This document shows positions 9,227 through 58,470 of a DNA stretch of 64,000 bases, one piece after another. A program made the translations under genes and the position numbers. Within the stretch, counting starts at the first letter, position 1, and each line of letters begins with the position of its first letter. The DNA lies in assembly GCF_965363235.1 (NCBI RefSeq), contig NC_134847.1, positions 70,038,935 through 70,102,934 of the forward strand, in the 5' to 3' direction. Source of the DNA: Mytilus galloprovincialis (taxonomy: Eukaryota). Under the pieces are notes generated by a model. The model made no database searches. It had not been told where the DNA came from and was given only the letters and a program-made list of their open reading frames with translations.

Positions 9227-9272
9227 TGGAACAACGAAAATCAAGGGACGACAATTGTGGTCTCGGACCTAA

Positions 9273-21010: not shown

Positions 21011-21215
21011 GTGAGAGGGTTAGCCCTATAGAACCACGTTTAATCTACCATTTTCTACATTTGAAAATTCCTGTTCCAAGTCAGTAATATGACAGTTCTT
21101 GTCCATTCGTTTTTGATGCGTTTTGTATTTTAATTTTGCCATGTCATTATGGACTTTCCGAATTGATTTTCCCCTAAGTTCAATATTTTTGTGATTTTAC
21201 TTTTTGTTTATGTTG
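21011..21215 (+). repeat. Copy of a ~200-bp dispersed repeat (SINE/MITE-like). Other copies lie at 38160-38350(+), 42021-42211(+), 48806-49005(-) and 60622-60840(-).
   Basis: Shared blocks gagagggttagc.ctatagaacca..ttaatc.accattttctacatttgaaaa..gtccattcgttt.tgat...ggactttccg..ttgattttcc. The ORFs 38160-38369 and 42021-42230 lie entirely inside copies. Confidence 0.6.
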
Positions 21216-27201: not shown

Positions 27202-27505
27202 TGTATACCCGTCATTTTAGCGATATACTTAACATTGTCATAAAGCGTGGAAGTTTGGCCAGTCACAAAACTAGGTTCAACCCACCATTCTTTCTTAAAA
27301 CGTCGTGTACCACGTCAGAAATATGGCAGTTCATTTCTATGCATGTTGCATTGTTGTTCGTGTTTTATTGCACTTCAGTGCTTGGTTGTTTTCCTCTTAT
27401 AGTTGATGTGTTTCCCTCAGTTTTAGTTTGTAACTAGGATTTGTTTTCTCTCAATTGAAGTATGACTATTGGATTGGACAAGGTCAGCAGCAATAAACTA
27501 ATCAG

Positions 27506-29136
27506 ATGAATGAATTTATGTTTGCAGATGTTTTATCAGAATTACCTGATAGTCTTGTGAAAGAGATGTTGAAAAAGAAAAAAAATGATGATGTATGTCT
27601 TGATGAAGGAGTTATATCAGAAGTACCTATGTTTCCTGTAATAGATGAAAGTGAAATGGGGACTTCTACAGAAATCAATGATGATGAAAAGGAGAATGAA
27701 AAAAATGATGAAATTGTATTCGAGAGTTTGGACCTTTCGGAAATCACCAATAGTAGTTATTGTAGTTGTTCTATAAATAAACAATATGAAGACAAATATT
27801 TGTACAAAGAAGACCAAATAGTTTACTTGCCTAATACCGTAGAAGCAACAATAAACAAAGACAAAAAGACTGATATCCATAAAGAAATTTCTGTCAACAG
27901 TAGTTCTTTAAAAAGCTCTAAGGTAAATGAAATGTATGATTCTTCGGCTTTGTCCATGATTGACTTACCACCTTTGTCAATGGATGACTTTGAAGAAAAA
28001 CAAGACGGTAGTTTCACTAAGAATGGTAGTTTTTTACGGTTGTGTACTGAAACATCTATCAACAGGGTTTCAGAGGTAGACACTTATGTTTCACATGTAG
28101 GTCATTGCACAGGTCACTATGAGGATAATTCTATCAGAGAAAACAAGGTATGGTGGGTTCCTAATTATCAAATCATACCAATTACAAAGAATGATGCGGT
28201 ATACAGTTCTGATAAATTATCACAAGCTTTTGACAGTAACAAGAGTGAAAAAAGCAACATTTCAACTATAAGTTCCGGATGCTGTAGTATAATCAGTAAT
28301 AAACTGGATGTTCATATTTGTCAATATAAATGTCTATCCTCAAACGTACATTTTGAAGAGTCTGTTTTTTCAAACAAGGGCGTAGTTGATCTACAAAAAA
28401 GGCAAGCAAATAAATCAATAAATAAAAAATATTCTAATGGAGAAGAATATTTACAGAAATGTAGAAAACATCATGATATTGCTAAGATTGTAAAAACCAC
28501 TTTGAAAGAGTTAGCGATGAAAAGGGTAACTGAAATAACTTTAACATCAAAATGTAATCGAAAGAAAAAAAAGCGAAGGATATCAAGAAGAAAACTTCGA
28601 CGCATTATATTTTCTAATCGAATTAAATCATCAAGGTCTCTTCAAATACAAGTAAGACCTGTTGAACATTCACCTCAGCTAATAACAACTTCTAGTGAAG
28701 CAAACACTAGTCATCCAAATCACAATGGAACAATTTTGAGTCTACAACAACAAATTTCAGTTCAAAGTGTATTACCAGTTCACAATATGTCAAATTATAT
28801 CAGAACTGATGGGTCATCTGATTTGGTCACCGGGTCATCATTCACAACGCCATCTGTGACATCTTCAAGTTCTTGGACTAGCTACCTCAATAGTTTGTCG
28901 ATGGGATATGAATACAGTGTTGAGAAAAAGATGCAGTACGAATGGCTGAGAGTACAATCTTACCAGAATTTTCCAGCTACCTGCCATGCTAGTCCCTTAC
29001 GTTTAGCTAGAGCTGGTTTCTTCAGTACTGGTATTATTGATGAGGTTTTATGTTTCAGCTGTGGGGTCAAATACAAAAACTGGAAGAAAAAGGATAATCC
29101 TATTGAAGTTCACCATAGAATATCGCCAGATTGTCG
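27506..29136 (+). CDS. IAP-family exon 1. A 544-aa ORF with a long acidic, Ser-rich N-terminal region, a basic NLS-like stretch (KCNRKKKKRRISRRKLRRI) and a C-terminal BIR domain complete through its last zinc-ligand Cys.
   Basis: ..YEWLRVQSYQNFPATCHASPLRLARAGFFSTGIIDEVLCFSCGVKYKNWKKKDNPIEVHHRISPDC matches the BIR signature R.x.T/S-F-x-x-W/F-P...AGF.Y.G..D.V.CF.C-x16-H-x6-C. The ORF ends at the donor TGTCG|gtaaat, phase 2, and TAA follows if the donor is not used. Confidence 0.8.
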
Positions 29137-30178
29137 GTAAATATTTGTTGTAAAATTATTGAAGATGGTTTTTTTTTTAATTTCTGTATTTTACTTATAA
29201 TGAACTTTTATTTTCTACAGAAAAGTTAGGTCTATTTTTATTTAAGACTTATATATATATATATACTTCTTTATGCTCAAATCAAATGCAAAAGGACAGT
29301 ATCCAAAGCTAATTTGGGCATTTTTTGTTTTCCTCATTTTTCATATTTCTTTAAATGTGTTTTGCAATTAATTTTAATTAAGATACAGTCTGGGGTTAAT
29401 TTAGGCATTACTTCAACTTGGAATGTCGTGGAATGTTTTGAAACTTGGAAAGAAGTGGATGTGTCTGCTCACCAAAAACATCTGAATAAATAAGTTTGAT
29501 TTGATTTTCTTTGGAAGTCAGCATAAAACTTTTACATATACACTTGCATCAGCTAGAGAATGCATTCTATAGAACCCCTTATGTTTTTCTGTGTAATGGT
29601 TAACTTTCGTTTTAAATTTTGCTTAATGATCAATATAAACAGTTTCATAATTTTATCACAATCTTAGTTATTTCAATTTGAATGTCAACTAAATTTGGTC
29701 TGTTGAAAAATGTTATGGAGTACTACATTAATAGCAGGTTCTAAAGTACTTTAGATGATATGTTAACTGTATTTTCTGTAAGGCTATCTGGCAGGGCCTA
29801 TTCTTATCTTGACCTGATTTTCCTTTACCATCTCTGGGCTCTTTGACTGCTTCCTTCACCAATAAAAACTACTTGCCACGAAATAGCACAGTAGTTTTTA
29901 AAGTGGCGTTAATAAAACAAAATCAACCAATCATTTATCAGTGATGATGGTAAGTTTTTGCAATTCAAGTATTATAAGACCTTGATCTTCAACATAAAAT
30001 TGATTTATAATTAATAGAACTGCAACGTTTATTTCTTAGTGATCTCTTTAATCACCTTTTGCAGAGCTTAGTTACACAATATGATAATAAATTGGTCCTT
30101 TTGATGATATAGCTTTTTAGTCTCAAGCTTTGCTAAGCAACACATTGTATTTGAATAAAACAATTTTGTTTTTGATAG

Positions 30179-30285
30179 GATGGTAAATGGTAGAGAAACA
30201 ACGAATATCCCAATTATTTCAGTAATCAACAGAGAAGCTGCAGACAATCCTCAGCAAGAGGCAAGCCAAAGACTAGTGATTGATA
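30179..30285 (+). CDS. Candidate IAP exon 2 (107 nt) encoding the post-Cys tail of BIR1 (R-MVNGRETTNIPIISVINREAADNPQQEASQRLVID)
   Basis: Acceptor tttttgatag|G, donor GATA|gtatgt. The entry phase matches the exon 1 donor and the exit phase matches the acceptor at 35990. The peptide resembles the tail of BIR2 (FVRQNKGHRFVEIITKRQAEM) in the same relative position. Confidence 0.4.
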
Positions 30286-32739
30286 GTATGTAATCAAAAA
30301 AAGCAGCTAAGTAATATTTAAATAACAAGAAAAAAATTGTCTGTTTATCAGTTTTAGTGACATTTATGTTTTGAAAGATATCCTAAAAGTTCTTTTATTA
30401 ATAATACAAGTGTGGACACAGATGAGTGTGGATAGTATGTTTGGGTGTTTGATAGTGTCTTATGACAAATAGGAGTTCTATGTTTTCCTATATGGTGTTA
30501 TAAACTGTGTTGCACGATGACAACCAACCTGAGCATTAGGAGTATTGTTTATTTAATATTTATTTTTTATGTTCAAGACGGGCATGAAAGAGACAGTAAT
30601 TACATTAGTTACCAAATGATTATGATAGAATATGTTCCACATCTTTGATTTTGGATACATTTTGCAGCCAGGAGAGCAACGCATAATAGGTTCATTTTTT
30701 CATGTGTTTTTTTTTCTAAATGGGAGATGATATATAGATTTAATAACATGACATAAGTAGCCTGTAATTCAGTGGTTGTCGTTTGTTTGTGTGTTACATA
30801 TTCGCTTTTCGTTTATTTTTTGTACATAAATAAGGCCGTTAGTTTTCTCAATTAAATTGTTTTACATTGTCATTTTGGGGCCTTTTATAGCTGATAATAG
30901 GTATTGGCTTTGCTCATTGTTAATGGCCATATGGTGACCTGTAGTTGTTAATTTCTGTGTCATTTTGGTCTCTCGTGCAGAATTGTCTTATTGGCACTCA
31001 TACCACACCTTTTTTTATATATATTTGCTTACTATTTGTATGGTTCTATTTATATTATTTTGTGGTGGATCATCAGTATCATTAGTAAATGTTTTTGTTA
31101 AATTGTTCCTCAGATTAGAATACATTAATTGGTTTAATTTTTAGTAATGACAATGCCTGGTGCTAGATAATCTAGGAAGTAAACCTTTGTGCTGATTTTT
31201 ATCAATTCTTTGATAATATCTCTTCCAAATCTGGTTGAAGCAAAGAAAAAATTTGACCAATATGACAATGATTTCACCAAAAGAACCTTTGTGAGCATGC
31301 TTCAATGACTTTCAATGTATAACTGCTCCAAAAGTAATCTGATAGAATTTGTCAAGTTGATATTATCAACAGCTACTTAATTAGTCTTAATATGTCTAAA
31401 TATCTAAAAAGTAATAGTATTCAAAAGGTTATGCAAAATAATTCTCTTTTCATTTTTTTTATTATATGGATACAAATATAAGTGATACATGTACCAATAC
31501 AGTATTTGTTGTGGTATGAAAGTGTAGTAATTAACATTTACTGTAACAATGTTAATTCACACAAATTAAGAAATAAACAAATGAATAAAAAATGTTGAAC
31601 ATGTACAATGGAATATAGTTTAAGAAATCGATTATGCCAGATAGGCCTTATAATTTACACTCAGGACCGGGTCATCAGTAGGCAGTACAGATGTATTATA
31701 ACAATCTAGCATCATATTGCTAGTAGCGGGAGAAGCGTTGTCAGGTAAATTTGGTCTTTTTTTTAAATTTTGTCAGTGAACATATTATGTTTGGTTCAAA
31801 TCGAAACAGAATGCTTTTATCTCCTTATTACTTACAATGTACATAGAGGTGATAATTCTTTGACAAATCCTTGTACATGAGAGTTGTCTGTCAAATCTTT
31901 ATTTAACAAAGAATGAATTGCATAACAATGAACTGAGCTCAAAGCAAAATACTTTAATAGTACACTTAGACAAAGAGCTAAATCCAGTGATATACATTGT
32001 ACTACAGGTCCTTCATGAACATCCATCGACCAAAACCATATATCTCAATAACATGCCATACTACATGGTTGGATCAGAAGTCCTGAAAAAAGACATGATT
32101 TTTTTAATCGTATTTATATATATATATAGATTAAAACTTTCTTGTGGTATAATCATTCAGTATCTAGCAACTATCAATTTGCTTCATACACAAACATTCA
32201 AAACTATAAAATGTTATCTAAGATTTGTCAGTGTCTATTTACATTTGTACCATTGTCACTGAATAAGTGATATATGTACAATTATATACATGTAAGACTA
32301 CAATTTTAAAGTACATATATAAGACTAAAACTGACATTCTGTCTTTACTGACAACTTCATTCCCCAAGTCATTTTCAAATCTGACTTCAAGATAAAATAA
32401 GATTCAATATCTACATATACAACCAATGAAAATCAAATACCCCTCTAATAGACTAGCATTGAAATCCCAGTTTTCTAAAATGGTAGCTAGGTGGTGGAAC
32501 CTAAAATTAAAAAAATTGAAACAATATTTCTTAAATATTTCAAATGCATGTACATGTAATAATATAAATTTTCCTAAATTCGCTATATTTTTTTTTTGTC
32601 TTCTGTTCCAGACTGTATATTGACCTCTAGATGTCTTTCAATTACATTCAGTTTGGTGTGGGTTGATGTTTGATTGTTGTACAACCAGATGCTCCGCAGG
32701 GTCCAGCTTTATACACAGCAGAGGTCGAACACGGATCAG

Positions 32740-33260: not shown

Positions 33261-35989
33261 AACATACAATGTAATACCATTATAAAAAAAATTGTTGTCT
33301 TATAAAAATTGTCACTTGACCAACAGAAAAACCTTACATTTTGTGTACGTCCAATGCATTATTGGACTTGATTTAAGCAAATGACCCTTAGATTCAAGTC
33401 CCTAATATCACTTACTATTGTCAGCGGACCAGATAATCTATCCCACTTCATACAACAATCCTGTTTCCATTGTGGCATCAGTTATTTTGTATTGTGAAGT
33501 CAAAATTTTACAGCAACCTGGGTGATGTCCAGTCATGGCAGACAAATAGCAAAAAGATGTTTAGGAAAACATGACCTAAAACCTCCTTCATATAAGACAC
33601 AAATACATGGAAACCGAATCTTGCTGCTTTAAAATAAGGGTAAAAAGATGAAGTCTTTTTAACTTAAATAAAGGGTGGGGGGTCATTACCATAAGAACAA
33701 CTTTTCTAAAAGATGATTCCACATATATTCATTGTATTTTCAATGAATTATAAATATTGAAGTGTATCTCAGGCATCTGAGAAAAGACTATTGAATTGAA
33801 TCGGTACATCTATACATTTTTGTTCAGGGTCAATCGACATCAATTTGTTGGCCTCTCTAATAGACGTCCAATTTTTAGCTTCTCGAATTGACGTCAGGTT
33901 TATGGCCATATGAAAAGATCCAAACGCCGAGATATTTGGCCTGACATGCTGCATTACATATGGAAATGTCCAAAACAAATTAACAACACTGCAAATTGGG
34001 ACTGAAAAGATTTATACATGTTATACCAACTGAAACTTCGACTGTCTGAGAGAGATGTAAAGACAGTTCTAGGTTAATATGTTCACAACAAATGAAAACT
34101 TTAAATTTGTTGAAAAATATCTAACGAAGTCCAAATTATAATACTCTCAAAAAAGTTAGCTTTACATCTTTATTTTGTCCATTGTTGAAGACTGATTGCT
34201 GCCCTCTATGTGTCCTATATGTCGTTTTGTTTTCTTTGTCATTGGGTCCTGATTGACATATACTCGCATGTAATTTATCAATGTGAATATAAATGAAATT
34301 CGTTAACGTAGAACGACCTTACCCCCTCCCCGTCCTTTTCTAGATAACAATAAGGATGGGGTGGGGGTGTACCTTCGAGTGTATCTCCTTATTTCTTGAT
34401 AGTACTACTGTGATAGTACTATCTACTGTGATAGTAGAGTTTGTTATATCTTTACAACGTCATTACTAGAATTTCAAACTTCTATGACTATACATGTACA
34501 TGTATATATTCGTTTTGTTATTGGTAAATTCGATATGGCAGTATGGTATTTGCGGAATTCCAACGTAAATGCCACGAGTCAATTGAGATATAAAGTATCA
34601 TAAAATTGAGCTGTGTTCATTAAGAAACACATACAAATATACGTTTATCATACAACTCAAAATGTAAACAACCCCTAAAATACAATGTTATATGGAATCG
34701 TCCAACATACATTTATCATACGACTCGAAATGTAAACAACCCCTAAAATACAATGTTATAGAGAATCGTCCATAGCAGATGAAAGACATAGAATTCACGA
34801 ATACACGTCCAAATAATTATGACGTCTTGGAAGGCTATTTCTTCCTGTCGAAGTAAGGCGTCAAAGAAAAAAAATATAATAGCCTTTCAAGATGTCATAA
34901 TTATTTGGACTATCAGTTGGTATGACTGACATTAGATGAAATAAAAATAGATATGTCAGCTAATAAAATATTCAATAGTTTTTTGTTGGTTGAAATGTCC
35001 TGAAATGTGATGGGTTTATGCAGCACATGTATCCCTTTACCAGTTTACTGGCTTCAGTTTGAAAAATAGACTACAGTAGAGACTAAATGGGGACTAAATG
35101 TGTACAAACCAGACATCCAACTATGTTGTAGAAAATGTGATCATCAATTTATCAAAAATATATACACAGAGAACAATATATTTCACAATACATATGCATT
35201 AATCCAAATTTACATCCATTCGTACGGTCTCAATAGAAGAATTTCCCGCGGAAATATCATGTGATATAAACATGGAATTTTCCACACCGATACAGGTGAA
35301 ATACGTAGAATAACAATTGTGGACACAGCAATGAGATCAGATATAAGACCCTCATGAGCTCGGTGTAAAGTAAAAAAAATGTAAAAATCAATTATTAAAT
35401 AAATTTGTTCGATTAACCTTGAAGTGAAGACTAATAAAAATTTGCGTGTATAGAGTGAGCCCCCTAAATTAAATAATACTGTGTTCTTGACGACTTCCCA
35501 CCGCGATGATCGATAGAAAAGATATTTTACTATATAGTATGTTAAATAATAAAAAAATGAACCTTATACTTTCAGACACGATTTTAAGAGAAAACATTCA
35601 ATTCTCTTTTATATATTTTTACATATTTCAGACTATTAATCTTTCAGATAACAAATATCGTGCAAAGTTAGTAATCTCATAGCAACAGTCATAGGAATAC
35701 ATAATCTTTTGTTTTTGCTTAATAGATAATACAAATTATAGATAATACAAATTGTCTGATAGTATTATGTTTTTGTAGTCAAAATCGAATTTAATGATTA
35801 TGTTAACAAATAATTAATTAATAATAAAATTCAAATTAAGCTTCAGACTGAAGACAGATTTAACTATTTGGTTAAATTGAATTATTTCTTTTATTTCCTG
35901 CAATTTTACCTATTATTACTTCAACAAATAAAACTAACTTCCTTGATATAATTCTTATTCTTACTTTGATTTAGATCTCCTGATATCAG

Positions 35990-36531
35990 GAATACATCAA
36001 AATGAAGATGTTAGCATTCAGACAACTGAAGGAGCCACAAACAGATCATTGACAAGAGAGGACATACAAATCTCCAATGATGCAGACACTACTTCTCAGT
36101 CAGTAAATCGAACACAGCAACCTCATATAGTTCACCATGCATTGAGACCATCAGTAGTTGACAGAAACCATTCTGTATTAGATGGAGAACAGAACAGACC
36201 TGCACACAGAGACATTGGTGAGGATTTGGGTATAACATTAGAAAGACCAATGTATCCAGCTTATGCTCAACTGAGTGTTAGGGTCCGTACATTCCAGGGC
36301 TGGCCTGGATACTTAGATCAGGCCCCTAGAGATATGGCACTGGCAGGATTCTTCTATGCTGGCTACAATGACTATTGTAGATGCTTCTTTTGTGGAGGAG
36401 GCTTACGTGACTGGGATGCTGGCGATGATCCTTGGGTAGAACATGCAAGATGGTTTTCTAAGTGTTCATTTGTTAGACAAAACAAGGGCCATAGATTTGT
36501 GGAAATAATTACAAAGAGACAGGCTGAAATG
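35990..36531 (+). CDS. IAP exon (module A, copy 1), 542 nt, with an intact BIR domain
   Basis: Acceptor ctcctgatatcag|GA, phase 1. Donor GCTGAAATG|gtaataac, phase 0. The ORF 36049-36549 lies within it. ..RVRTFQGWPGYLDQAPRDMALAGFFYAGYNDYCRCFFCGGGLRDWDAGDDPWVEHARWFSKCSFV has C-x2-C-x16-H-x6-C all present. Confidence 0.8.
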
Positions 36532-38791
36532 GTAATAACAATAAATTAAATCTAATCATAAAAGGTGATACTTTTATCCCACATTGAACATGAAATATGC
36601 ATCATGTTTTTTATTTAATTCCAAACTTGGGAATTCAGTCTTTTTCAGCAAAATTTAATAAAAACAGTACCTATTTCGTGTAATCGATTCCTCCATCAGA
36701 TTTCAACCCTATACATTGAACCTTCACACATATATTGCACAAGTTTTGAAGTTTTGTAGTTTTTATGGAATTGTTTGAGTGTTGCTATATTTTTCTGAAT
36801 GTAAGAAAATAGTCATATTTCTGCAAAGTCTACAAATCAAAATGGTACCAATTGTGTATAACAGAATGATTGCATTTATTTTATATTATTGTAGCTGTGC
36901 ATTTCTATTTTGTAATTATTTGATCAAGTAAGATGAGCTGGTTCATAGCATTCAACAGTAATGTCATTATTACATGTTTGTGTCACAAAATGACTGAATG
37001 AAATAGCTGAACAAATATCAATGTGACAACATTTACAGAAAATGAGTTCATAAAGGAAAAAAAAGAAGAAGAAAAATGATATGATTGATTTGCATTATTC
37101 ACTGTGAGGGTTAACAGTTGCTTTAACATTTAAAAAATGTTATCGGGCCTTAATATATTTCAAGTTATTTAATTTGTCATTGGTTATCTTCTTTTACAAT
37201 TTAAAGTACAAAGTTATTTCCCCTCAACTTTGCAAAATTTGTGTTGGAACAACATTATTTTTGTAGCAAAGTTAATTTTTTATTCAAATCGTGAGCTTGA
37301 AAAAAAAAATTTGTCTAAGTTTTCAACATGAACCAAAGCGCTTTGAAAATACATAAATATTTGGAATGTAACTTGCGGTCATGATGGTTTCACTGAAACT
37401 TTTATGTCTGAGAAATGCAGGCTATCATTTTGGTTAAACGAAAGACTGACTTATCTTTAAAAGAGCTTATAGTGTACTCTTATAAAGCGATTCCCATTGC
37501 CTCACATTGGGGCTTTGAAAGATATCCATTTATGATGAGATTGTGACCTTTATTTTTTAATATGTATGCTCTTTTTTCCGTTTGAATGGTTTTACACTAG
37601 TCATTTTTTGAGCCCCTTTGAAGCTTGCTGTTCGTGTGAGCCAATGCTCCATGTTGAAAACTGTACTTTGACCTATAATGGTTTACTTTTACAAATTGTG
37701 ACTTGAGCAACATGAGCAACACGACGAGCGCCACGTGTGGATCACCTGAAATCCTCCATAGTTTTTGGTAGGGTCCATGTTGTTGTTGTACCCCTATTTG
37801 TGACAGTTTGTTCACTCATCATTGTCAATTTAAGGGAAATTGATGCGACTGTCGTACAAGTGGTTTATTTAGGTGTTATACCACCATTTATTTCCCCTAT
37901 TAGTCTTTGTCTCCCCTTATTTAACTGGTGTATATGCTTTACTATCCACGTAACCTCAACTATACACAATATTCTATAGGAAACCCAAATAAAAACAATA
38001 ATGGTGTTGTGAAATACCCAAGACAAATGTTAATGAAACAGAATTGTTTTACTGCAATAAAATATAAGGATTAGTTACCTACAACTGTCAAATTAAAGGG
38101 AATATTTTTTTACCTATGTTCGTATAAAACCGGATGTGACGTACCATGCTTTAGTGGTATTACACCTTTGGCGCTATACAACCAGATTCAATCCACCATC
38201 TTCTACATTTGAAAATGTATGTCAGGTATGATAGTTGTTGTCCATTCGTTTGATATATTTTATCATTTGATTTTGAAATTTGATGAGGGACTTTCCGTTT
38301 TGAATTTTCCTCGGAGTTCAGTATTGTTGTGATTTTATATTTTGGATGGAAAGTTGTCTCATTGGACATTTTGAAAAATTAATAACATCCACCATTGTTA
38401 TAGCAAAACATAGAATTTTGGGTCTAACAAATTATAAAAGCAATTAATTTGTTTAAGCATTTATTTTTATGATGAATATGATATCTCGAAGAAATAAGTT
38501 TAAATAAACTTTTGAAAAGAGAAAAGGCCTAACCTCTCCATTTGACAAGTGACAATCCATTGAAAAATATAGTTTATGTCACTTTGATTAATACTTTTCA
38601 AATACTTAGGGAAAACACTAAAACAATATCCATCTGCTAATTATTATCTCCCATGAAACTGGTGGATGTATCGTTCCTCGTACAGTCAGAATGTTGGCAG
38701 GCGACAAGTTTTAATCATAATGTGACTACCAGAATATGAAGTCTTACAGGTTCAATATTGATATATTTAAAACTATCATTGTCAATTTCAG

Positions 38792-38918
38792 GAGGCATCT
38801 AATAATTCATCAGATATTACTGAGAATCACACAGCAGTGTCAAATTATGGCGCAATCGAAGATAGAATCTACATAAACTCAGAAGAAACAACACCAACAC
38901 CAATGACCACTCAATCAG
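38792..38918 (+). CDS. IAP linker exon (module B, copy 1), 127 nt: EASNNSSDITENHTAVSNYGAIEDRIYINSEETTPTPMTTQS
   Basis: Acceptor tgtcaatttcag|GAG, phase 0. Donor CAATCAG|gtagat, exits with 1 base. Identical copy at 42653-42779. The diverged but ORF-preserving copy at 45677-45803 supports coding status. Confidence 0.6.
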
Positions 38919-39636
38919 GTAGATTACTAAATAACCCATTTTGTTGTAACAAATAAACAATAAATGTCATGGGTAAGTTCTACAAATTAAATAAGCAAGA
39001 AGCAATCATGGGCTATTAAGAATTCCACTGTGAAATCCCTGTGTTTGATTGGTGTTGAATGGGAACGACATTTTGCCTTTCAACAGGCCACCTACAGACC
39101 ACTCAAAGTGTTCTTGGGTCAGCACATTGAAACCGACGGGAGCTGGTTGTAATTTATAAAATATTGAAAGAGAGAAGGAAAAAAAAAGTTCACATATGAA
39201 AATGAATTCATCATACAAATGAAATGACAAGCGATTTCACCCTTAGAGCAATGGTATATATTTGATCCCACAGAGGAAAGAAATGCATTGTGTTACCAAA
39301 ATATATTCTCTTGAATAAATTACACATGTGTGTCAGCACAGTAGTTTATTTGATGATATTGAACATGTTTTAATTCTTGCAATTGTTCCTTCATGTAATG
39401 TTCTTTTTTACAATCAGCATCCTAAAACGTAATTGTCTAGAGTGTTGAAATATTGTCAAACACGTGTTGCAGTGGTAACCTCTATATGTCATGCTAGTAT
39501 ATAGACGTAAATAAAGTCGGATAAAAACTAATAAAAATGTATACAACTTGTATACAAGTATAGGTTCTGTTAACAATTACTCAATTTTAACTCTAAATTT
39601 AAGATTTCCTGCAATTTACAATACATCAAAATGAAG

Positions 39637-40016
39637 ATGTAAGTATTCAGACAACTGAAGGAGCCATAAACAGATCATTCACTAGAGAAGACATACAAAT
39701 CTCCAATGATGCAGACACTACTTCTCAGTCATTAAATCGAACACAGCAACCTCATGTAGTTCACCATGCAATGAGACCATCAGTAGTTGACAGAAACCGT
39801 TCTGTTTTAGATGGAGAACAGAACAGAACTGAAGATAAAAGCAAGGCAGAGGATTTGGGTATCAGTTTAGAAACACCAAAATGTCAAGATTATGCTCAGC
39901 TGAATGACAGGGTCAGTACATTTCAATGTTGGCCTGGATATTTAGACCAGGCACCAAGGTTTTTTTTATATACAGGATACAATGATCATAAAGGCGATAC
40001 TTTTATATCATATCAA
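39637..40016 (+). pseudogene. Degenerate BIR-like exon (module A*, copy 2). It keeps RVSTFQCWPGYLDQAPR..FFLYTGYND but lacks the CxxC/His/Cys zinc ligands. An open frame runs to a GTATGT donor, so it could be a pseudo-exon or an alternative exon.
   Basis: Relative to copy 1 it has a 15-bp in-frame deletion (DMALA). After YND, ~100 bp are replaced by ~330 bp that includes atcataaaggcgatacttttat, which resembles the intron just 3' of exon A. The candidate acceptor GAAG|AT and donor TATCAA|gtatgt keep phases 1 and 0. The 3' BIR remnant at 40299-40396 is left in an incompatible phase (gctgaatg|gt). Confidence 0.5.
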
Positions 40017-42652
40017 GTATGTTGAAAGATGCCTAATGTTGTTTTTTTTAAATGACCAATATTTTGAATCAAATGAAATTACACATCAGAGTTTAAAAAA
40101 AACTTAAAAAATACATATTAACCAAATATCATTCGTACAAGGATTCTACACTTGTATGAGAGTTTTAAAAAAGCAAGGTTAAATGTCTTTGTTTAAATTA
40201 ATTCTAAAGCAGTTTCATCTGCAGCTGCTGGTAATGGAGGTTTAAGTTGTATAAAATTGACTAAAATGTCAAATGTGTCCAAGTTTCTTTCCTTGGGTAG
40301 AACATGCAAGATGGTTTTCAAAATGTCCATTTGTAAGACAAAACAGAGGTCATAGATTTGTGGAAACAATTACAAAGAGACAGGCTGAATGGTAATAACA
40401 ATAAATTAAATCTAATCATAAAAGGTGATACTTTTATCCCACATTGAGCATGAAATATGCATCATGTTTTTTTTTATTTCCAAACTTGGGAATTCAGTCT
40501 TTTTCAGCAAAATTTAATAAAAACAGTACCTATTTCGTGTAATCGATTCCTCCATCAGATTTCAACCCTATACATTGAACCTTCACACATATATTGGACA
40601 AGTTTTGAAGTTTTGTAGTTTTTTATGGAATTGTTTGAGAGTTGCTATATTTTTCTGAATGTAAGAAAATAGTCATATTTCTGCAAAGTCTATAAATCAA
40701 AATGGTACCAATTGTGTACAAAAGAATGATTGCATTTATTTTATATTATTGAAGCTGTGCATTTCTATTTTGTAATTATTTGATCAAGTAAGATGATCTG
40801 GTTCATAGCATTCAACAGTAATTTCATTATTACATGTTTGTGTCACAAAATGACTGAATGAAATAGCTGAACAAATATCAATGTGACAACATTTACAGAA
40901 AATGAGTTCATAAAGGAAAAAAAAAGAAGAAGAAAAATGATATGATTGATTTGCATTATTCACTGTGAGGGTTAACAGTTGCTTTAACATTTAAAAAATG
41001 TTATCGGGCCTTAATATATTTCAAGTTATTTAATTTGTCATTGGTTATCTTCTTTTACAATTTAAAGTACAAAGTTATTTCCCCTCAACTTTGCAAAATT
41101 TGTGTTGGAACAACATTATTTTTGTAGCAAAGTTAATTTTTTATTCAAATCGTGAGCTTGAAAAAAAAATTTTGTCTAAGTTTTCAACATGAACCAAAGC
41201 GCTTTGAAAATACATAAATATTTGGAATGTAACTTGCGGTCATGATGGTTTCACTGAAACTTTTATGTCTGAGAAATGCAGGCTATCATTTTGGTTAAAC
41301 GAAAGACTGACTTATCTTTAAAAGAGCTTATAGTGTACTCTTATAAAGCGATTCCCATTGCCTCACATTGGGGCTTTGAAAGATATCCATTTATGATGAG
41401 ATTGTGACCTTTATTTTTTAATATGTATGCTCTTTTTTCCGTTTGAATGGTTTTACACTAGTCATTTTTTGAGCCCCTTTGAAGCTTGCTGTTCGTGTGA
41501 GCCAATGCTCCATGTTGAAAACTGTACTTTGACCTATAATGGTTTACTTTTACAAATTGTGACTTGAGCAACATGAGCAACACGACGAGCGCCACGTGTG
41601 GATCACCTGAAATCCTCCATAGTTTTTGGTAGGGTCCATGTTGTTGTTGTACCCCTATTTGTGACAGTTTGTTCACTCATCATTGTCAATTTAAGGGAAA
41701 TTGATGCGACTGTCGTACAAGTGGTTTATTTAGGTGTTATACCACCATTTATTTCCCCTATTAGTCTTTGTCTCCCCTTATTTAACTGGTGTATATGCTT
41801 TACTATCCACGTAACCTCAACTATACACAATATTCTATAGGAAACCCAAATAAAAACAATAATGGTGTTGTGAAATACCCAAGACAAATGTTAATGAAAC
41901 AGAAATGTTTTACTGCAATAAAATATAAGGATTAGTTACCTACAACTGTCAAATTAAAGGGAATATTTTATTACCTATGTTCGTATAAAACCGGATGTGA
42001 CGTACCATGCTTTAGTGGTATTACACCTTTGGCGCTATACAACCAGATTCAATCCACCATCTTCTACATTTGAAAATGTATGTCAGGTATGATAGTTGTT
42101 GTCCATTCGTTTGATATATTTTATCATTTGATTTTGAAATTTGATGAGGGACTTTCCGTTTTGAATTTTCCTCGGAGTTCAGTATTGTTGTGATTTTATA
42201 TTTTGGATTGAAAGTTGTCTCATTGGACATTTTGAAAAATTAATAACATCCACCATTGTTATAGCAAAACATAGAATTTTGGGTCTAACAAATTATAAAA
42301 GCAATTAATTTGTTTAAGCATTTATTTTTATGATGAATATGATATCTCGAAGAAATAAGTTTAAATAAACTTTTGAACAGAGAAAAGGCCTAACCTCTCC
42401 ATTTGACAAGTGACAATCCATTGAAAAATAAAGTTTATGTCACTTTGATTAATACTTTTCAAATACTTAGGGAAAACACTAAAACAATATCCATCTGCTA
42501 ATTGTTATCTCCCATGAAACTGGTGGATGTATCGTTCCTCGTACAGTCAGAATGTTGGCAGGCGACAAGTTTTAATCATAATGTGACTACCAGAATATGA
42601 AGTCTTACAGGTTCAATATTGATATATTTAAAACTATCATTGTCAATTTCAG

Positions 42653-42779
42653 GAGGCATCTAATAATTCATCAGATATTACTGAGAATCACACAGCAGTG
42701 TCAAATTATAGCGCAATCGAAGATAGAATCTACATAAACTCAGAAGAAACAACACCAACACCAATGACCACTCAATCAG
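42653..42779 (+). CDS. Linker exon B, copy 2, identical to 38792-38918
   Basis: Lies at offset 3861 from copy 1 with the same splice sites. Confidence 0.4.
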
Positions 42780-43497
42780 GTAGATTACTAAATAACCCAT
42801 TTTGTTGTAACAAATAAACAATAAATGTCATGGGTAAGTTCTACAAATTAAATAAGCAAGAAGCAATCATGGGCTATTAAGAATTCCACTGTGAAATCCC
42901 TGTGTTTGATTGGTGTTGAATGGGAAACGACATTTTGCCTTTCAACAGGCCACCTACAGACCAGTTAAAGTGTTCTTGGGTCAGCACATTGAAACCGACG
43001 GGATCTGGTTGTAATTTATAAAATATTGAAAGAGAGAAGGAAAAAAAAAGTTCACATATGAAAATGAATTCATCATACAAATAAAATGACAAGCGATTTC
43101 ACCCTTAGAGCAATGGTATATATTTGATCCCACAGAGGAAAGAAATGCATTGTGTTACCAAAATATATTCTCTTGAATAAATTACACATGTGTGTCAGCA
43201 CAGTAGTTTATTTGATGATATTGAACATGTTTTAATTCTTGCAATTGTTCCTTCATGTAGTGTTCTTTTTACAATCAGCATCCTAAAACGTAATTGTCTA
43301 GAGTGTTGAATTATCGTCAAACACGTGTTGCAGTGGTAACCTCTATATGTCATGCTAGTATATAGACGTAAATAAAGTCGGATAAAAACTAATAAAAATG
43401 TATACAACTTGTACACAAGTATAGGTTCTGTTAACAATTACTCAATTTTAACTCTAAATTTAAGATTTCCTGCAATTAACAATACATCAAAATGAAG

Positions 43498-43877
43498 ATG
43501 TAAGTATTCAGACAACTGAAGGAGCCATAAACAGATCATTCACTAGAGAAGACATACAAATCTCCAATGATGCAGACACTACTTCTCAGTCATTAAATCG
43601 AACACAGCAACCTCATGTAGTTCACCATGCAATGAGACCATCAGTAGTTGACAGAAACCGTTCTGTTTTAGATGGAGAACAGAACAGAACTGAAGATAAA
43701 AGCAAGGCAGAGGATTTGGGTATCAGTTTAGAAACACCAAAATGTCAAGATTATGCTCAGCTGAATGACAGGGTCAGTACATTTCAATGTTGGCCTGGAT
43801 ATTTAGACCAGGCACCAAGGTTTTTTTTATATACAGGATACAATGATCATAAAGGCGATACTTTTATATCATGTTAA
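43498..43877 (+). pseudogene. Degenerate BIR-like exon (module A*, copy 3). It has the same lesion as copy 2, plus an in-frame TAA just before the former donor (..TFISC*).
   Basis: Copy 2 reads tat caa|gtatgt, and here it reads tgt taa gtatgt. This is the ORF 43632-43877. Confidence 0.5.
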
Positions 43878-45676
43878 GTATGTTGAAAGATGCCTAATGT
43901 TGTTTTTTTTAAATGACCAATATTTTGAATCAAATGAAATTACACATCAGAGTTTAAAAAAAACTTAAAAAATACATATTAACCAAATATCATTCGTACA
44001 AGGATTCTACACTTGTATGAGAGTTTTAAAAAAGCAAGGTTAAATGTCTTTGTTTAAATTAATTCTAAAGCAGTTTCATCTGCAGCTGATGATAATGGAG
44101 GTTTAAGTTGTATAAAATTGACTAAAATGTCAAATGTGTCCAAGTTTCTTTCCTTGCTAGCAGATGGTTTGGTGGTAAGGCAGTGGGTACTTATATTCCA
44201 TTATTCCTACAGTTTTTATCCCTGAGATTTGAAACGTTACATATGTATTGCACTTATGATGAAGTTGTGTACCTGTAATTATTATTAATTGTTTGGGGAA
44301 TTTTACTTCATATTCTCAGAATTGAGAGCTTAGTAACTTTCAGCAAAATTAACAAACAAATGGTAACCAGTTTTGTGTAATCAACTTCTCTCATAGTTTT
44401 TAATGCGGCAAAATATATTCTAAATTATTGAATATGTAATAAATTATCTTTTTTTTTACAATTTAAATTACTTAGTAATGACCTCTAAATTATGCCAATT
44501 TTTTGTTGGAACAAATTTTTTTTTTAGCAATGTAGCTAAGCTAATTGTTTATCCAATCCTTGATCTTGAAAAGGTTTTCTAAATGAACAAAAGTGCTTAC
44601 AATTATATACAAATTTGAATTGCAACTTGTGATCATAGGTTTCCTTGAGCTTTAAGGTATTTGAAATACCCACAATTGAAGTGCATTGAAGTCATCAGCC
44701 AACAAAGGCTGACTTTAGAATTTATCGTGTACTCCATAACACGTTTTCTTTTGCCTCACGTTGGGGCTGTTAAAATATATATGATCAAGATTGATAGTCT
44801 AATTATAGCAAAAATGAACATTGTCCTTTAATGATATACTTAGCTCAGGTTTTGGGATTTGTGTGGAATGTTCGGACTCCTTAGAGTTTTTTCATACGAT
44901 ACAAGGTAAAATATTTTGCCCCATAACACCGATTTATTATTTCATATAAGACTTAATAGCTCATAAAAGGTCATCTAACAAAATTTCAGCACATTCTTGA
45001 TTTTCTTTCTTTTTATTTGAGACCCAAATAATACCAATACAAATGAAAGGTAAAAGTCCAAGTCAGCCTTTTCCCGTGATATTGTATACATCACATATCT
45101 CGAAAAGGAGTTCCATGACCTATCAATATTTTTAGCTTATTTTGATCCTTAACTAATACTCTTCTAGCTTAAAGCATCAATTTTAAATTCTTAATTTATT
45201 TAATTTTACCAAACTACATCCTCAATTTTCGATAATGAAAGTTAATTGTGTTCTTTTTGTATTAAAATCATGAGTTGTCAATGTAATCATGTCATTACAC
45301 CAAACAACCTGCTGCAAACATTATATGACATAAGTAGTTTGTTTGAAGCATCATTTTGAAAAAAAAATCAATAATTACCACTATTGTAATTTAAAAGTGT
45401 AAATTTGAGTCTAACAAATTTATAACAGCAAAGAAAGTTGTTAACCATTTATTTTATGATGAATACGATAAGTGGATAACTAACCTTTAAAAAGAGAGAT
45501 GACACAACCTCTCCATTTGTTATGTGACAATCCATTCAAAATAGAAACTGGAGGATGTATTGTTCATGATACAGTCAGAATCTTGTCAGGTGCATACACA
45601 TTTTAAACACAATTGCCAACAGAAGCTATTAGCAGTTCCATATTGACATGATAAGAAATATCATTGTTTATTTCAG

Positions 45677-45803
45677 CAAGCACCTAATTACTCATCAGAT
45701 ATTTCTGAGAACCAAGCAGCAGTGTCAAGTTATAGTGAAATAGAAGAAAGAACCCAAATAAACTCACAAGAAACATCACCAACAACAATGGTCACTCAAT
45801 CAG
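45677..45803 (+). CDS. Linker exon B, copy 3: QAPNYSSDISENQAAVSSYSEIEERTQINSQETSPTTMVTQS. It is ~25% diverged, yet the same length (127 nt) with frame and both splice sites conserved.
   Basis: Acceptor ttgtttatttcag|CAA, donor CAATCAG|gtaggt. No stop codon. Confidence 0.5.
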
Positions 45804-47559
45804 GTAGGTTGTAATATCGTATCATCTTTTTGTGGTAACAAATAACAATCGGTGTCATGGGTAGGTTCTACAAATAAAGTTATCAGGAACAAATAATGGG
45901 CTATTTAGATTGACACTGTTGAATTTGGTGTGTTTGATTAATGTTGAATAGGAACAGACATTTTGCTTTCCAACATGCCTCAAACAGTGCACTCAAAGTG
46001 TTAATAAGATGACATGGGGTCACCACATTGAAATTTCCATACACGTTATAAAAAAGAAGATGTGGTAGGATTGCCAATTAGACAACTGTCCACAAGAGAC
46101 CGCTTTTAACATTAATATTTAGACGGGAGCTAGCTGCATATTTATGTGTATATTGTATTGATAAACAAACATGAAGAAAGAAAGTTCACATAAACATAAT
46201 ATAAAACATAATTCATAACACAGAAGAAATGACAAGCGATTTCACCATTAGAGCAATTGAATACATTGGATTAAACAGAGGAATGAAGTGCAGTGTTTTA
46301 CCAAATTATACTATACTATTGAATAAATTACACATATATGTGTCTGTACAGAAGTTTTATATGTTGATGATATTGAGCATGTTTTAATTCTTGACATTTT
46401 CCTTCAAGTTCAGTTTTTTTCACAATGAGCATATTAAAAAATCTGAAATAAATAAATTGCAATTCTTATGGTCTGTTGTTTTGTGGTTTAGAAGGCACTT
46501 TCAAAGGATTGTGGCTTTTTTTTTTTATCTTTCACTTAAATAGTATATAAAGGAATAATTCACAACATGTCTCTATTAACACTGCATATTAATCAAATTT
46601 AATGAGAATATTTCTATAGTTATGCTGGGGCAAAAGAAAATTTGAGATATATATCCATAGAGTAACAACATTACAAGTTCCATGAAATTTGGTGGTTGTA
46701 CTCTCCTGTATAGCAGGTTATGCAAATAGTATTTTTTAAAGTAATAAGCCTGTACGTTAATAGCTAAATGAAAGTTAAAGTAAAATAATATCTTTAAAAT
46801 TTATCTCGACAATTATGCTTTCTCAGCAACCCTTAAGTTAAACTGTATTATGACTGCGATTTTCTGTATAGGAAACCTAAAAATTGAGGCAACAGAAATT
46901 TTGTCGGTGTCGTCGGCGGCGTCCACAAATATTCACTTTGTGGTTAAAGTTTTTGAAATTTTAATAACTTTCTTGAATATCCTGGATTTCTACCAAACTT
47001 GATCAGAAGCTTGTTTATGTTCATAAGATAGTATCCAGGAGTAAATTTTGTAAAATAAAATTCTGTTTTTTCCGTATTTTACTTATAAATGGACTTAGTT
47101 CTTTTCTGCCAGGAAACATTACATTAACTCTGTGGTTAAAGTTTTTAAAATCTTAATAACTTTCTTAAACTATCCTGGAATTGTACGAAACTTGTCCAGA
47201 AGCTTGTTTATAATCAGAAGATAGTATCCAGAAGTTAATTAGGTAAAAATAAAATTCCGTTTTTCCCGTATTTTCTTACTTTCATACAGTCTGCAGTCAA
47301 AGTTTTTCAAACATTTTAAGATTCATAAACTAACCTTGATTTTTACCAAACTTGGACAGAAGCTTCTGACATTCAAAAGATAGTATTAGTATTAAGAGGA
47401 AAAAATTTATTGATTTTTTTCATAATTTTTGTTGAGTATGTGATTAGCAGCAAAAGTAAGCCAGATACTGGGTTCCGCGGAACCCTTACAAATTTTTTAA
47501 CATATTTCTCCGGTGCTTATTAAGTAGAACAAATTCACACTTAAGATATCACATGTAAA

Positions 47560-47960: not shown

Positions 47961-49904
47961 CATATGACACACCATCAAAACCTTTATTTAAACAATTAGG
48001 ATGGTTATCTTTTTATTTGAACAGGAATACTTTTGCAAAGAACTATACCGGAATATTGAAATGTTTTCTTCATTAAATTTGTTCTCGGACGTGGTATGAA
48101 AAGACAATTATTGTCCCAAACTTTTAGTTCTTTATTAAATAAATGTCTACGATAATCATGTGCAAGACTAATTACGCACTTATACATTAATACTCCTTTG
48201 TGATATGTGATTCTAATTTGAAAGGATAACCATCTGACATTAACAAAATATGTTTATGAACCTATTCTGTATGTTTTTCGCCTTTTGTTTTGCATAAAAG
48301 TATGTATGTAAATGTATATATATTATATTATTGAATATTTTGATTTATTCAGAGGGCATCAGAGGAGATTAGTATTGTACCAACTGATTTTACCCTCTTT
48401 AAATAAAAGTATTTACTATTATTATTACTTTTATTACTTTCTCACTGGCTCAACAGAAATAAGTAGAAATTTGGCAGCATTTTTTATACTACGTTAGAAA
48501 AGGGGTGAAATTCTTTCTGATATATGCGCTATTTCCTCTTGTCTTGATTTTATTCCCTATGTCACTCCTATATCAAGCGAAGTTTAACTCTTTTTAAAGA
48601 CACATTAACTTTTTATTCCTAAATATTTCCTGTATACAATTACCTGAGTCACACAAGAACAGTCTTAGGGTCCTTGTTTACAAAATGAGCAATCTATCCA
48701 GGGGTAATAAAAGGTCCACTTTTTACCTTGGATTTACAATTTGTGTCAAAAGTATATATATATAATGTGAGAAGCATCTAACAGTTCTAAGCCTTAGTTT
48801 AAAAAAGTAAAATCACAAAAATACTGAACTTAGTGGAAAATCAATTCGGAAAGTCCATAATCACATGGCAAAATCAAATAACAAAACGCATCAAAAACGA
48901 ATGGACAAGAACTGTCATATTCCTGACTTGGTACAGGCATTTTCAAATGTAGAAAATGGTGGATTAAACCTGGTTCTATAGCGCTAACCCTCTCACTTTA
49001 ATGACAATCTCATCAAATTCCGTTATATTTACATTGATGCGTTAACTAAACAGACACAATAAATAAAATAGTAAAAATATGGGTACATCAGTCATCATCG
49101 TATAACAATTTTAACTCTTTATAGTTCCTATGACCCGAATTCGGGTCATAAGCACTTTTTTGCGCAAAATTTTGATTCAAACCTTAAGTTCTTTGCCATT
49201 TGACTATCAACAGATATCACCAAGGGCTTAAATTAACCTGTGAGTTTCAGCTTCACGTTAAAATGCCAGTTGTGTATTTTAGGCTTGATCTTTGTGGCAA
49301 AATAAAGCAATTAAGCTATCATCGTTTTTAAAAAAATCAGTTAAAATTTAACAGAAAAAACTTTAGAATTGTGGAAATCTCGAATTATGAAAATATTGTG
49401 TTTGGTTTCTATAAACCGCAAAAATCGGTCTATTACGGATTTTTTTCTTTCAGTTTTGTGTTGAGCTTTATAAAATGTAGGTTCATAAAGTTATACTTTT
49501 ATTAATTTCTACGAAAAACGAATACAAACAGTGAACATTGTCAACATGTCAATAATTTTCAGCAACTATTTCTTAGAATTTCTGCCCATATCAGTAAAAA
49601 CGTGCATATTGTGGTTCCAGAGGTTTAAATGTAGTAATATAAATAGTATAAATGAAATGCATTTCTTACTACTTGTGTTACTTGTTTTTGAATTATTATC
49701 ATAATTACCCCCCCCCCCCTTTTTTCCCCTTTCCACTATTTTTACCTGGTTTACACACCATCTCACATTTTGTGTTCTTTTAGAGATGTTAAAAAATGCA
49801 TTTTTGACGTTTTTCTGAATATCTAATTATAATTTAATATTTGAATGTAAAAGGTCAATTTAAAAATAAATTTTACAAATAACATTGAAAATAAGTAGGA
49901 ATTT

Positions 49905-52860: not shown

Positions 52861-53051
52861 AAGGCAGTTCACTCAAAATGCAAAAAACGAAACAGGGCAA
52901 ATGCAGGACCTGTGATGCAAATAATGTACCTGTAGCATTTTTACCATGTGGACATATATACTGCTGTAACGACTGTACATCTGCAATGCTAAAATGTCCT
53001 ATGTGCAAAGTTGATATTAAACAAGCATTAAAAAGGTACTTCCATACTTGA
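52861..53051 (+). CDS. IAP terminal exon encoding a C3HC4 RING finger (..KCRTCDANNVPVAFLPCGHIYCCNDCTSAMLKCPMCKVDIKQALKRYFHT*)
   Basis: Acceptor cttgtgttttgtag|AA, phase 1. The spacing C-x2-C-x11-C-x-H-x3-C-x2-C-x6-C-x2-C and the short C-terminal tail match the IAP RING (cf. C.ICMD....VF.PCGHL..C..CA.....CP.CR..I...). Stop at 53049-53051. Confidence 0.8.
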
Positions 53052-56400: not shown

Positions 56401-56639
56401 ACCATATATCTATATTCAATCAGAGTAAATTGATAAGGTATATATTTCTGTCAGTACGAGTTGTTGTATACACTGTGACCTTATTTGAATAGTTTAGTTT
56501 TAGCGTTTCCGATTAAAGATCAGTTGAGCTTTTGTCATTACTTTGTGTCCGCTGTCTGTCATTGTTCGTTTACCTTTTACAAAATCTTCTCCTCTGAAAT
56601 TGCTAGGCTAAATTTATTCAAACTTCGCCACAATCTTTT

Positions 56640-58470
56640 TGGGGGTATTTAGCTTTAAAAATGTGTCTGATGACCCCACCTAGCAACCAAGTTGTTGAGA
56701 ATATTGCAATATTCCTACTGTTCATATATGTCAGAGGGCCTGTGGGAGATATCCCTTATATGTCAAATATATTCCAAGATTTAAATTCTCTATTGGATAC
56801 TAATAAATCAAAAATAAATCTATTAAATAACATGCTTGTTGATTTAGAAAAAGAGAACATGTCAAATGTATTAGACTATAAAGTGACTAATCAGGAAATA
56901 GTTAAAACATTTACCAATTTAAAACCTGGAAAGGCATGTGGTCTGGACCTGATACTAAATAACATGTAAATACAAGACTTTCTAAACATTTAGATGAGAG
57001 AAATATTTTGATTGATTGCCAAGCTGGCTTCAGAAATAAATTAAGGACACCAGATCACATGTTTATCCTCAAATGCTTTATTGATAAATATACTTATTGT
57101 AAAATAAGTAAATTTTATGCTTGTTTTTTTTTAGCTTTTAATTCTGTGATACACCCAGGTATCCTCAAGGCTCAAGTCAGACATTGGAGGGAAATTTTAC
57201 CAGTGAATTAAACACATGTATACACTTAATAATCAAAGAGTAAAAGTTGATAACAAACTAGGTCCATGTTTTAACTCTTATATTGGGGTTAGACATGGGG
57301 ATATTTTAAGCCCTGTTCTTTTTAATCTATTCATAAATGATCTACCTAACTGTTTACTAAATGGTCCTGATAGTGTAAAACTTAGTCGCATAGACTGTCT
57401 TATGTATGCAGATGATGTCATTGTATTTTCTGATTCTGCTGATGGACTTCAAAAGCGCTTGAAGGCATTGGAATCATTCTGTGATACCTCGTGTCTAAAT
57501 GTTAACTTAAAAAAACTAAAGTTTTACTATTTGATAAAAGTGGACGCCACATAAAAGAACCATTCTATTTTAAAGATGAATTAATTGAAACTGTTTTCAA
57601 ATATAAATACCTTGGAGTTATATTCCAGTCAAGTGGCCTATTTAATTATGCAAAAAAATACATATTTAATAAATCTTTAAAAGCTTCATATAAACGTAAT
57701 AGATGTTTATCTGGCTCAGATGCTAGTATTAAAACAAATTTACATCTGTTTGACCATACCTTTAAACCTATTATTTTGTATGGCTCAGAGATATGGGGAA
57801 TGTTTAAAACCAACTCTGCTTCTTGTATAAAAGATGTTACAAATGTACTTGAAAAAATATACCAGAATAATGTTGCTGATAAAATGAACTTAAAGTTCTG
57901 TAAGCATATTTTAGGCTTAAATAACAAAAGTACAAATGTTGCTGTACAATCAGAATAAGGCAGATTTCCTATATATTTTAATATTGTTATATCTATGATA
58001 AGCTATCTGCATAGATTACATCATTGTAACTCAAATTTGTTGAAAGAAGCGTGTTTGTGTAACAAAGATGTGCATGAAAATAACACTATGACATGGTATT
58101 CCTCTGTTAAATTTATTTTACAAAAGCTTGAATTGAAAGAAACATATAGTATTGATTATTCAATAAATAGATTAAAACAACTTATTATTAAAAAGTTAAA
58201 GACATTATTTTTAAAAGCATGGTTCAATGATAAAGATAAAGTTAATGGAAAGCTCGATATATATTTTTCTCATAAAAGTAATTTCCAAATGGAAAAATAT
58301 CTTGATATTCAAAGTTTTCAATCAAGACAAATTTTATGTAAATTTCGCTTAAGTGCCCACCAATTACGAGTAGAAAAAGAGCGACATAAGAACAAACCTA
58401 TAGAAAGGTCACAGAGGACTTGCAATTTTTGTTCTCATAATGATATATTGAAGATGAGTTTCATTTTTTA
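56640..58470 (+). mobile_element. Degenerate non-LTR retrotransposon ORF2 (reverse transcriptase) remnant with frameshifts
   Basis: Successive frames give KPGKACGLDLI (56661-56969), DCQAGFRNKLRTPDHMFIL (57008-57211), GVRHGDILSPVLFNLFINDL...LMYADDVIVFSDS (57216-57554) and a C-terminal CNFCSHND Cys motif (57995-58471). These are canonical LINE RT blocks in the correct order. Confidence 0.7.

Follow-up and report, generated by a model that had tools for sequence, protein, structure and literature searches.

In the window, a 64,000-nt stretch of Mytilus galloprovincialis DNA, a truncated copy of a BIR-coding exon, A*, is probably (at about 0.65) a decaying relic, or pseudo-exon, of the BIR2 exon of an IAP gene, derived from an intragenic cassette duplication. 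The first-pass annotation had described positions 39637-40016 as a zinc-less half-BIR exon with an open frame, and the frame, its HKGDTFISYQ tail and the adjoining GTATGT are all present. It had also raised the possibility of an alternatively spliced exon rather than a dead pseudo-exon: A* is frame-compatible with the gene, but a maintained coding exon is disfavored by the relaxed constraint on A* and by a tail and donor that are former intron. The locus is an ordinary instance of the known turnover of IAP domains and gene families.

The AT-rich window (29-35% GC) carries a predicted Mytilus galloprovincialis BIR1-BIR2-RING IAP gene on the + strand, with exons E1, X, A, B and RING; exon B is present in three versions:

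27506..29136, + strand: exon E1, long N-terminal region and BIR1; donor TCG/GTAAAT, phase 2.
30179..30285, + strand: exon X, RMVNGRETTNIPI...; acceptor tttgatag/G, phase 2; donor GATA/GTATGT, phase 1.
35975..36531, + strand: exon A, linker and intact BIR2; acceptor 35974/35975, phase 1; donor ATG/GTAATA, phase 0.
38792..38918, + strand: linker exon B1, 127 nt; acceptor phase 0; donor CAG/GTAGAT, phase 1.
42653..42779, + strand: linker exon B2, a recent copy of B1 with one replacement, G to S; acceptor phase 0.
45677..45803, + strand: linker exon B', an old duplicate of B with 82% nucleotide identity; donor CAG/GTAGGT.
52861..53051, + strand: RING exon; acceptor phase 1; stop codon; Pfam zf-C3HC4_3, 43 bits.

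The 544-codon ORF of E1 (27506-29137) has a Pfam BIR at its C-terminus (63 bits) and is identical in a gill shotgun contig of M. galloprovincialis (L003; run SRR29152236, PMC11729891), which is collinear with window positions 27427-30430 and 99.9% identical over 3 kb; the exon end CR/GTAA of E1 recurs in a contig of a related mussel (L002). Exon A matches the Pfam BIR family at 79 bits (cutoff 22.9), shares 79-85% identity with the Mytilus BIRC2_3 proteins P0034-36 and has the best polypyrimidine tract at its acceptor (16/20). The nearest full-length proteins are Mytilus BIRC2_3 and IAP models. Exon X, overlooked in the first pass, was found by tblastn with the BIR1-BIR2 linker of P0034 and P0036 (E=1e-5); adding it leaves every gene model open and, since its donor is in phase 1, exon A begins at a phase-1 acceptor. 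A vent-mussel contig (L005) displays the family-native acceptor, tgtgtacag/AC TTT, homologous to 35974/35975 in exon A and to 39603/39604 in A*. Direct splicing of E1 to A at 36014/15 (phase 2), the sole AG that fitted, is ruled out by exon X. Lying between BIR1 and BIR2, exon X is detectable only through homology to Mytilus paralogues.

The RING exon is in frame with the donor of any B copy, and E1-X-A-B-RING is open with B1, B2 or B' (859-870 aa). B' has the best donor and retains the paralogue-like motif SEIE.RTQ..SQETS. Exons A and B together form a cassette of 557+127 = 684 nt with symmetric phases (1-1), so that any duplication of it keeps the reading frame by construction.

A* is present in copies 2 and 3, copy 1 being exon A itself:

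39604..40016, + strand: A* copy 2, a truncated duplicate of exon A; first annotated from 39637, with the homologous native acceptor at 39603/39604.
43465..43877, + strand: A* copy 3, with TAA at 43875-43877, directly before GTATGT.
39986..40022, + strand: intron-derived tail and donor-like hexamer; codons HKGDTFISYQ, then GTATGT at 40017-40022.
39909..39917, + strand: internal phase-0 donor-like site AGG/GTCAGT, within the R-V-S codons of A*.

In copy 2, the frame from 39639 runs for 126 open codons, ending in ...RVSTFQCWPGYLDQAPRFFLYTGYNDHKGDTFISYQ, inside a stop-to-stop frame of 140 codons (39603-40022) that encodes the linker and ~26 BIR residues. A BIR-derived N-terminal stretch is thus encoded, but the earlier description of it as the N-terminal half of a BIR is too generous: only ~26 of ~70 BIR positions survive. 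An AG is found at 39635-39636, where the acceptor had been placed (39636/39637); the family-native acceptor revealed by L005, however, corresponds to 39603/39604, 33 nt upstream in the same phase. GTATGT occupies 40017-40022, and the donor is thus in phase 0.

Self-BLAST aligns 39599-39958 with 35970-36329 of exon A at 85% identity. In the pairwise alignment, A* tracks A to ...TACAATG (36370) and picks up again at 36555, 23 nt into the intron: A* lost 184 nt (A positions 36371-36554), comprising 161 nt of exon, the native donor and 23 nt of intron. All four zinc ligands fall inside this deletion, and another 15 nt, encoding DMALAG, are missing in frame. Positions 39985-40051 align with intron 36555-36618 downstream of exon A (BLAST, 75%, E=2e-6), and further collinear intron matches pair 44229-44380 with 36716-36861 and 44412-44667 with 37152-37416. 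As the 184-nt deletion fused A* to the intron, the HKGDTFISYQ tail and GTATGT, i.e., the last 31 nt of the exon as first drawn plus the hexamer, are former intron. At the site that corresponds to the A* GTATGT, the copy-1 intron lacks a GT. An alternative origin of the tail, in which a MAFFT protein alignment pairs KGDTFISYQ with the BIR end KGHRFVEII, was rejected, only the intron match being significant at the nucleotide level. A supposed BIR C-terminus remnant after 44151 (GCAGATGGTTT, resembling ARWF) was likewise dismissed as a 9-nt chance match, collinearity favoring intron.

What remains of the domain in A* is small. None of the zinc ligands (C-x2-C-x16-H-x6-C) is retained (0/4); in the N-terminal core (R-x-x-(S/T)-F-x-x-W-P, then the x-M-A-x-A-G-F helix), RVSTFQCWPGYLDQAPR is kept and DMALAG is deleted, and a C replaces the family-invariant G before WP. 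A Pfam search with the 126-aa translation of A* returned no family at E<=1 (intact exon A, 79 bits; cutoff 22.9), and an HMMER search over 1.84 billion representatives led to Mytilus paralogues. Single-sequence AlphaFold2 gives pLDDT 42 for A*; the value for the intact exon A control is also low, 33. A* is homologous to a working exon of its own gene (85%) and bears disabling deletions, one of 184 nt that took away half the domain and another of 15 nt, as expected of a pseudo-exon.

A four-step history of duplication and deletion, shown from sequence, leads from exon A to the present arrangement. In the first step, a two-exon cassette (A, linker and BIR2; B, linker) was tandemly duplicated, the unit starting ~5 nt upstream of the A acceptor; the old duplicate of B and its flanks is visible as a self-BLAST match at 45352-46439 (71-80%). 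The second A copy then lost 15 nt, the DMALAG helix, and, in a third step, 184 nt, after which its frame ran 10 codons into former intron and reached GTATGT. Lastly, a recent 3.86-kb microhomology-mediated tandem duplication (36429-40289) doubled B and A*.

Two features of exon structure bear on the older duplication. In paralogues and related mussels (L001 216; L005 ~739; L004 52316, 55895), a phase-1 intron splits the BIR at the Gly codon of FFYA-G-YND; neither exon A nor A* has this intron (its site would be window 36362/36363), which suggests that it was lost before the old duplication. Furthermore, a ~190-nt tract of A and A* (36004-36190 vs 39633-39819) is 94% identical and its flanks ~76%, probably as a result of gene conversion between the old duplicates.

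The recent duplication left the following marks:

36429-40289 and 40290-44150, + strand: two units of a recent tandem duplication; 3,861-bp period, 98.8% identical, 45 differences.
40290..40392, + strand: orphan BIR2 C-terminus fragment, PWVEHARWFSKCPFVRQNRGHRFVETITKRQAEW; marks the recent junction; a single nucleotide is deleted ahead of the old donor.

By self-BLAST, 36429-40295 matches 40290-44156 at 98.8%, and the units are joined head to tail at the microhomology TCCTTG inside exon A. The heterozygosity range of Mytilus takes in the 1.0-1.2% by which the units diverge, and copies 2 and 3 could then represent two haplotypes of one locus assembled in tandem, with CAA and TAA as alleles. Such an artifact is very improbable: a clean join at 6 nt (TCCTTG) in exon A, accompanied by an orphan BIR fragment, is what a real microhomology-mediated duplication produces, and an assembler would need long overlaps to create it. 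Look-ups of the junction ORF gave no match.

Differences between the units cluster at their start: 9 of the 45 fall in 36429-36531 vs 40290-40392, where identity is 91% vs 99% elsewhere. The 3' end of exon A and the orphan fragment differ there by four synonymous changes, three conservative replacements and one 1-nt deletion, the fragment having paralogue-like P and R (KCPFVRQNRG) and exon A having S and K. L001 as outgroup gives a mixed result for the polarity of the cluster; ectopic gene conversion from another IAP paralogue is possible.

The two A* copies are 99% identical. Copy 2 reads ...TCA TAT CAA GTATGT and copy 3 (43498-43877) ...TCA TGT TAA GTATGT; the former reading frame meets TAA at 43875 in copy 3 and is open through to GTATGT in copy 2. 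Copy 3 had been thought to have acquired its stop and to be decaying. The TAA is there, but the direction of change is unsupported: against the copy-1 intron, one alignment favors T (stop) as ancestral and an equally good second alignment is uninformative. Because the intron outgroup does not fix the direction of TAA vs CAA, decay of copy 3 in particular is not established, and it may be copy 2 that lost a stop rather than copy 3 that changed.

A* does have the sites and phases of a cassette exon, i.e., an acceptor AG with a pyrimidine tract, a donor GT and symmetric phases. Its native phase-1 acceptor AG (39603/4) is retained with a fair polypyrimidine tract (13/20), and its phase-0 donor, CAA/GTATGT, has a U1 match of 7/9. 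The proposal that this donor would splice in frame to linker exon B holds as frame arithmetic, the cassette being phase-symmetric: B1 to 39637-40016 to B2 to RING (52861-) is an uninterrupted ORF, models of the form A-B1-A*-B2 (or B')-RING are open to the RING stop (1,015-1,050 aa), and so is an all-in model in which both A* copies use the AGG/GTCAGT donor (1,160 aa). Models A-B1-B2 and A-B1-B' are frameshifted, so two B exons that are both spliced in keep the frame only with A* between them. In addition, copy 2 has neither stop nor frameshift, and the indels that precede its large deletion have lengths divisible by three.

These properties count against a relic and favor a different reading, in which A* copy 2 would be a true cassette exon, subject to alternative splicing, that adds a spacer of 100-140 residues with a zinc-less BIR stub. 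B1 would be joined to the A* acceptor at 39603/4 or 39636/7, and the A* donor at 40016/17 or 39911/12 to B2 or B'. The use of a GTATGT donor by exon X of the same gene points the same way, as do gene models of an M. trossulus paralogue discussed below. Nevertheless, such an exon, included in frame at a low level or even regularly, is unlikely. The branch-point and polypyrimidine region upstream of A* is not native, since only ~5 nt separate the AG from the duplication boundary, and the A* tail and donor are accidental intron sequence. No A*-containing protein was found among 5.8 billion clusters in a protein search; exact look-ups likewise found neither the ORFs of A* and exon A nor that of the junction fragment, nor any of ten predicted isoforms, and an exact-pattern scan of metagenome contigs gave no match.

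The first-pass annotation had treated GTATGT as a consensus donor. It is present in phase 0 and has its counterpart in exon X, but it is intron-derived and not rare, occurring in the window at chance frequency (39 vs 41 expected). Four phase-0 GTs in A* have at least 6/9 U1 complementarity (39638, 39755, 39911, 40016), and the inferred real donors of the IAP gene score only 5-8 of 9. When neutral substitution of the 321-nt A*-homologous part is simulated, the frame stays open in 29% (22 hits), 19% (30) and 9% (45) of the runs. Reading from a random intron position yields at least 10 open codons half the time (P 0.5). A phase-0 GT with at least a 7/9 U1 match precedes the first stop in 2.2% of trials, and this ~2% speaks against a relic; taken together, in what is a weak test, the open frame and donor of A* are not improbable by chance. 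A* is in frame largely because its frame is open, and the open frame itself is unremarkable. Both A* copies have, close to their 5' end, a consensus GTAAGT (39639-44 and 43500-05) that two substitutions created from the exon A sequence (GATGTTAGC to GATGTAAGT); it is in phase 0 and 35 nt past the native acceptor.

The pattern of substitution favors the pseudo-exon over the alternatively spliced exon. When replacements are polarized with seven Mytilus-family relatives, the conserved block VDRN...APR has 14 A*-derived vs 3 A-derived replacements (binomial two-sided p ~0.013) and the whole exon 18 vs 8. Six of the A*-derived changes hit residues invariant in 7/7 relatives (R to K, D to S, Y to C, P to Q, V to D, G to C). 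Identity between A and A* is uneven, 94% over 36004-36190 and 76% over the BIR part (36184-36331); introns of the same old duplication are 80-81% identical in the flanks of B and B' and 69-80% in other alignable intron. At 76% vs 69-81%, the BIR part of A* is therefore no better conserved than intron. The A* copies differ from each other at 3 of 413 nt, namely 39617 (F/L), 40012 (Y/C) and 40014 (Q/stop), with 0 synonymous differences, and this rate equals the 0.95% background. A pairwise dN/dS of 0.34 between A and A* speaks against a relic, but the value includes the constrained A lineage; on the lineage of A* itself, these comparisons appear to hold no signature of purifying selection.

Decay of the linker exons is complementary. 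Omega between B1 and B' is 1.04; B' matches the paralogue P0034 (54% identity, E=0.001), whereas B1 and B2 do not, and a hand count against P0034 assigns 8 derived changes to B1 and 2 to B'. B1 is thus the fast-evolving copy, and A and B' keep the paralogue states. Conservation of A and B' with relaxation of the internal pair B1-A* is what is expected if the mRNA joins A to B'. Most likely, the productive mRNA links E1-X-A with just one B exon, probably B', and continues to RING, which restores the ancestral architecture. The two A* copies, B1, B2 and the orphan BIR fragment would then belong, in effect, to a single long intron. Were A* included at all, this would reflect noise in splicing or a spacer that is tolerated rather than selection for a BIR-like module.

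Exon X could also splice mutually exclusively to A, with a normal BIR2 as the outcome, or to A*, in which case the product would be a BIR1-linker-RING protein that has no functional BIR2 and could act as a regulatory or dominant-negative variant. X-A*-B2 (or B')-RING is open with A* taken from 39604 or 39637 to 40016 (811-822 aa), and A and A* share acceptor and donor phases. We give this arrangement hardly any credence: the relaxed constraint on A* applies here as well, and nothing points to mutually exclusive regulation.

The closest parallel to a spliced A* comes from the same genus. M. trossulus LOC134688515 (RefSeq models XP_063405362/63, XP_063405365 and XP_063405366; L004, CM071711.1:72919013-72984808) is an IAP gene with a linker and BIR cassette whose N-half exon has 86-87% nucleotide identity to window 36156-36362. 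Three decayed linker and BIR cassettes are modelled in the coding sequence of isoforms X1-X3, all three of which hold every one of them. Copy i is cut at a cryptic AGG/GTCAGT donor, with in-frame stops of the decayed BIR just past it; the AGG/GTCAGT of A* is homologous to this annotated donor (L004 41238/41239). Copy ii is of full length, with a zinc-less C-half exon (YNDNCTSGLRIRNW...SNSSF), and copy iii is an N-half BIR only, which a NAGNAG acceptor in phase 1 joins directly to the RING exon.

Annotated coding cassettes so similar to A* favor the alternatively spliced exon and tell against a relic, but the M. trossulus models are automatic predictions, and use of A* in mRNA is putative. LOC134688515 is, moreover, a paralogue and not an orthologue, its BIR1 and BIR2 being unrelated to E1. 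Its half-BIR is a natural exon with a native donor, owing to the phase-1 intron at FFYA-G, whereas the half-BIR in the window arose by deletion in an exon lineage, A and A*, that is unsplit.

A non-zinc-binding BIR type, NZBIR, has been described in oysters; its BIR is full-length, and only the first ligand is changed, from Cys to Thr (Witkop et al., 2022; PMC8917759). A* shares with NZBIR its derivation from a BIR, its place in a bivalve IAP and a predicted inability to coordinate zinc. Unlike NZBIR, it lacks all four ligands and ~60% of the domain, being truncated after YND, and so falls outside that type. Tandem and intragenic BIR duplication followed by BIR loss is described, for molluscs and insects, as a main route by which IAPs diversify (PMC13159474; also PMC7831173), and the A* locus is a snapshot of this duplication-and-loss process. 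That work deals with annotated proteins and describes neither exon relics nor the fate of their splice sites.

Bivalve IAP families are hugely expanded, and their architectures shift by domain duplication and loss. The A* locus displays the intermediates at nucleotide resolution: cassette duplication, a BIR halving that fuses exon to intron, and a very recent microhomology-mediated duplication. The practical value of the locus lies in annotation: gene-prediction programs may string together A*, the orphan BIR fragment and the additional B exons as spurious IAP models with multiple repeats. It is distinctly unlikely, on the present comparisons, that an appreciable share of transcripts includes A* copy 2, whether flanked by two B exons or substituting for A. 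If such transcripts exist, half-decayed BIR cassettes would serve Mytilus as frame-neutral spacers or as a means of producing RING isoforms that lack BIR2, a recurrent route of IAP architecture diversification at which the gene models of the M. trossulus paralogue hint. Expression of A* would mean that zinc-less BIR stubs persist as spacers; nothing here requires that.

The window contains several other repeats. About five tandem copies of a ~1,290-bp unit, 98.5-98.9% identical, occupy 9267-15717, and a minisatellite with a 21-bp unit (GAGATATCTTATTAACTAATA), repeated ~63 times where GC content is 23%, occupies 19002-20332 and also matches itself when inverted. A ~310-bp interspersed repeat, probably a SINE- or MITE-like element, occurs in both orientations at 20893-21208, 38168-38344, 42029-42205, 48801-49114 and 60618-60940 (75-93% identical) and again in the M. 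trossulus locus L004. The frameshifted remnant of a reverse transcriptase (Pfam RVT_1, E=6e-15) at 56607-58669, downstream of the IAP gene, most likely represents a non-LTR retrotransposon that has decayed.
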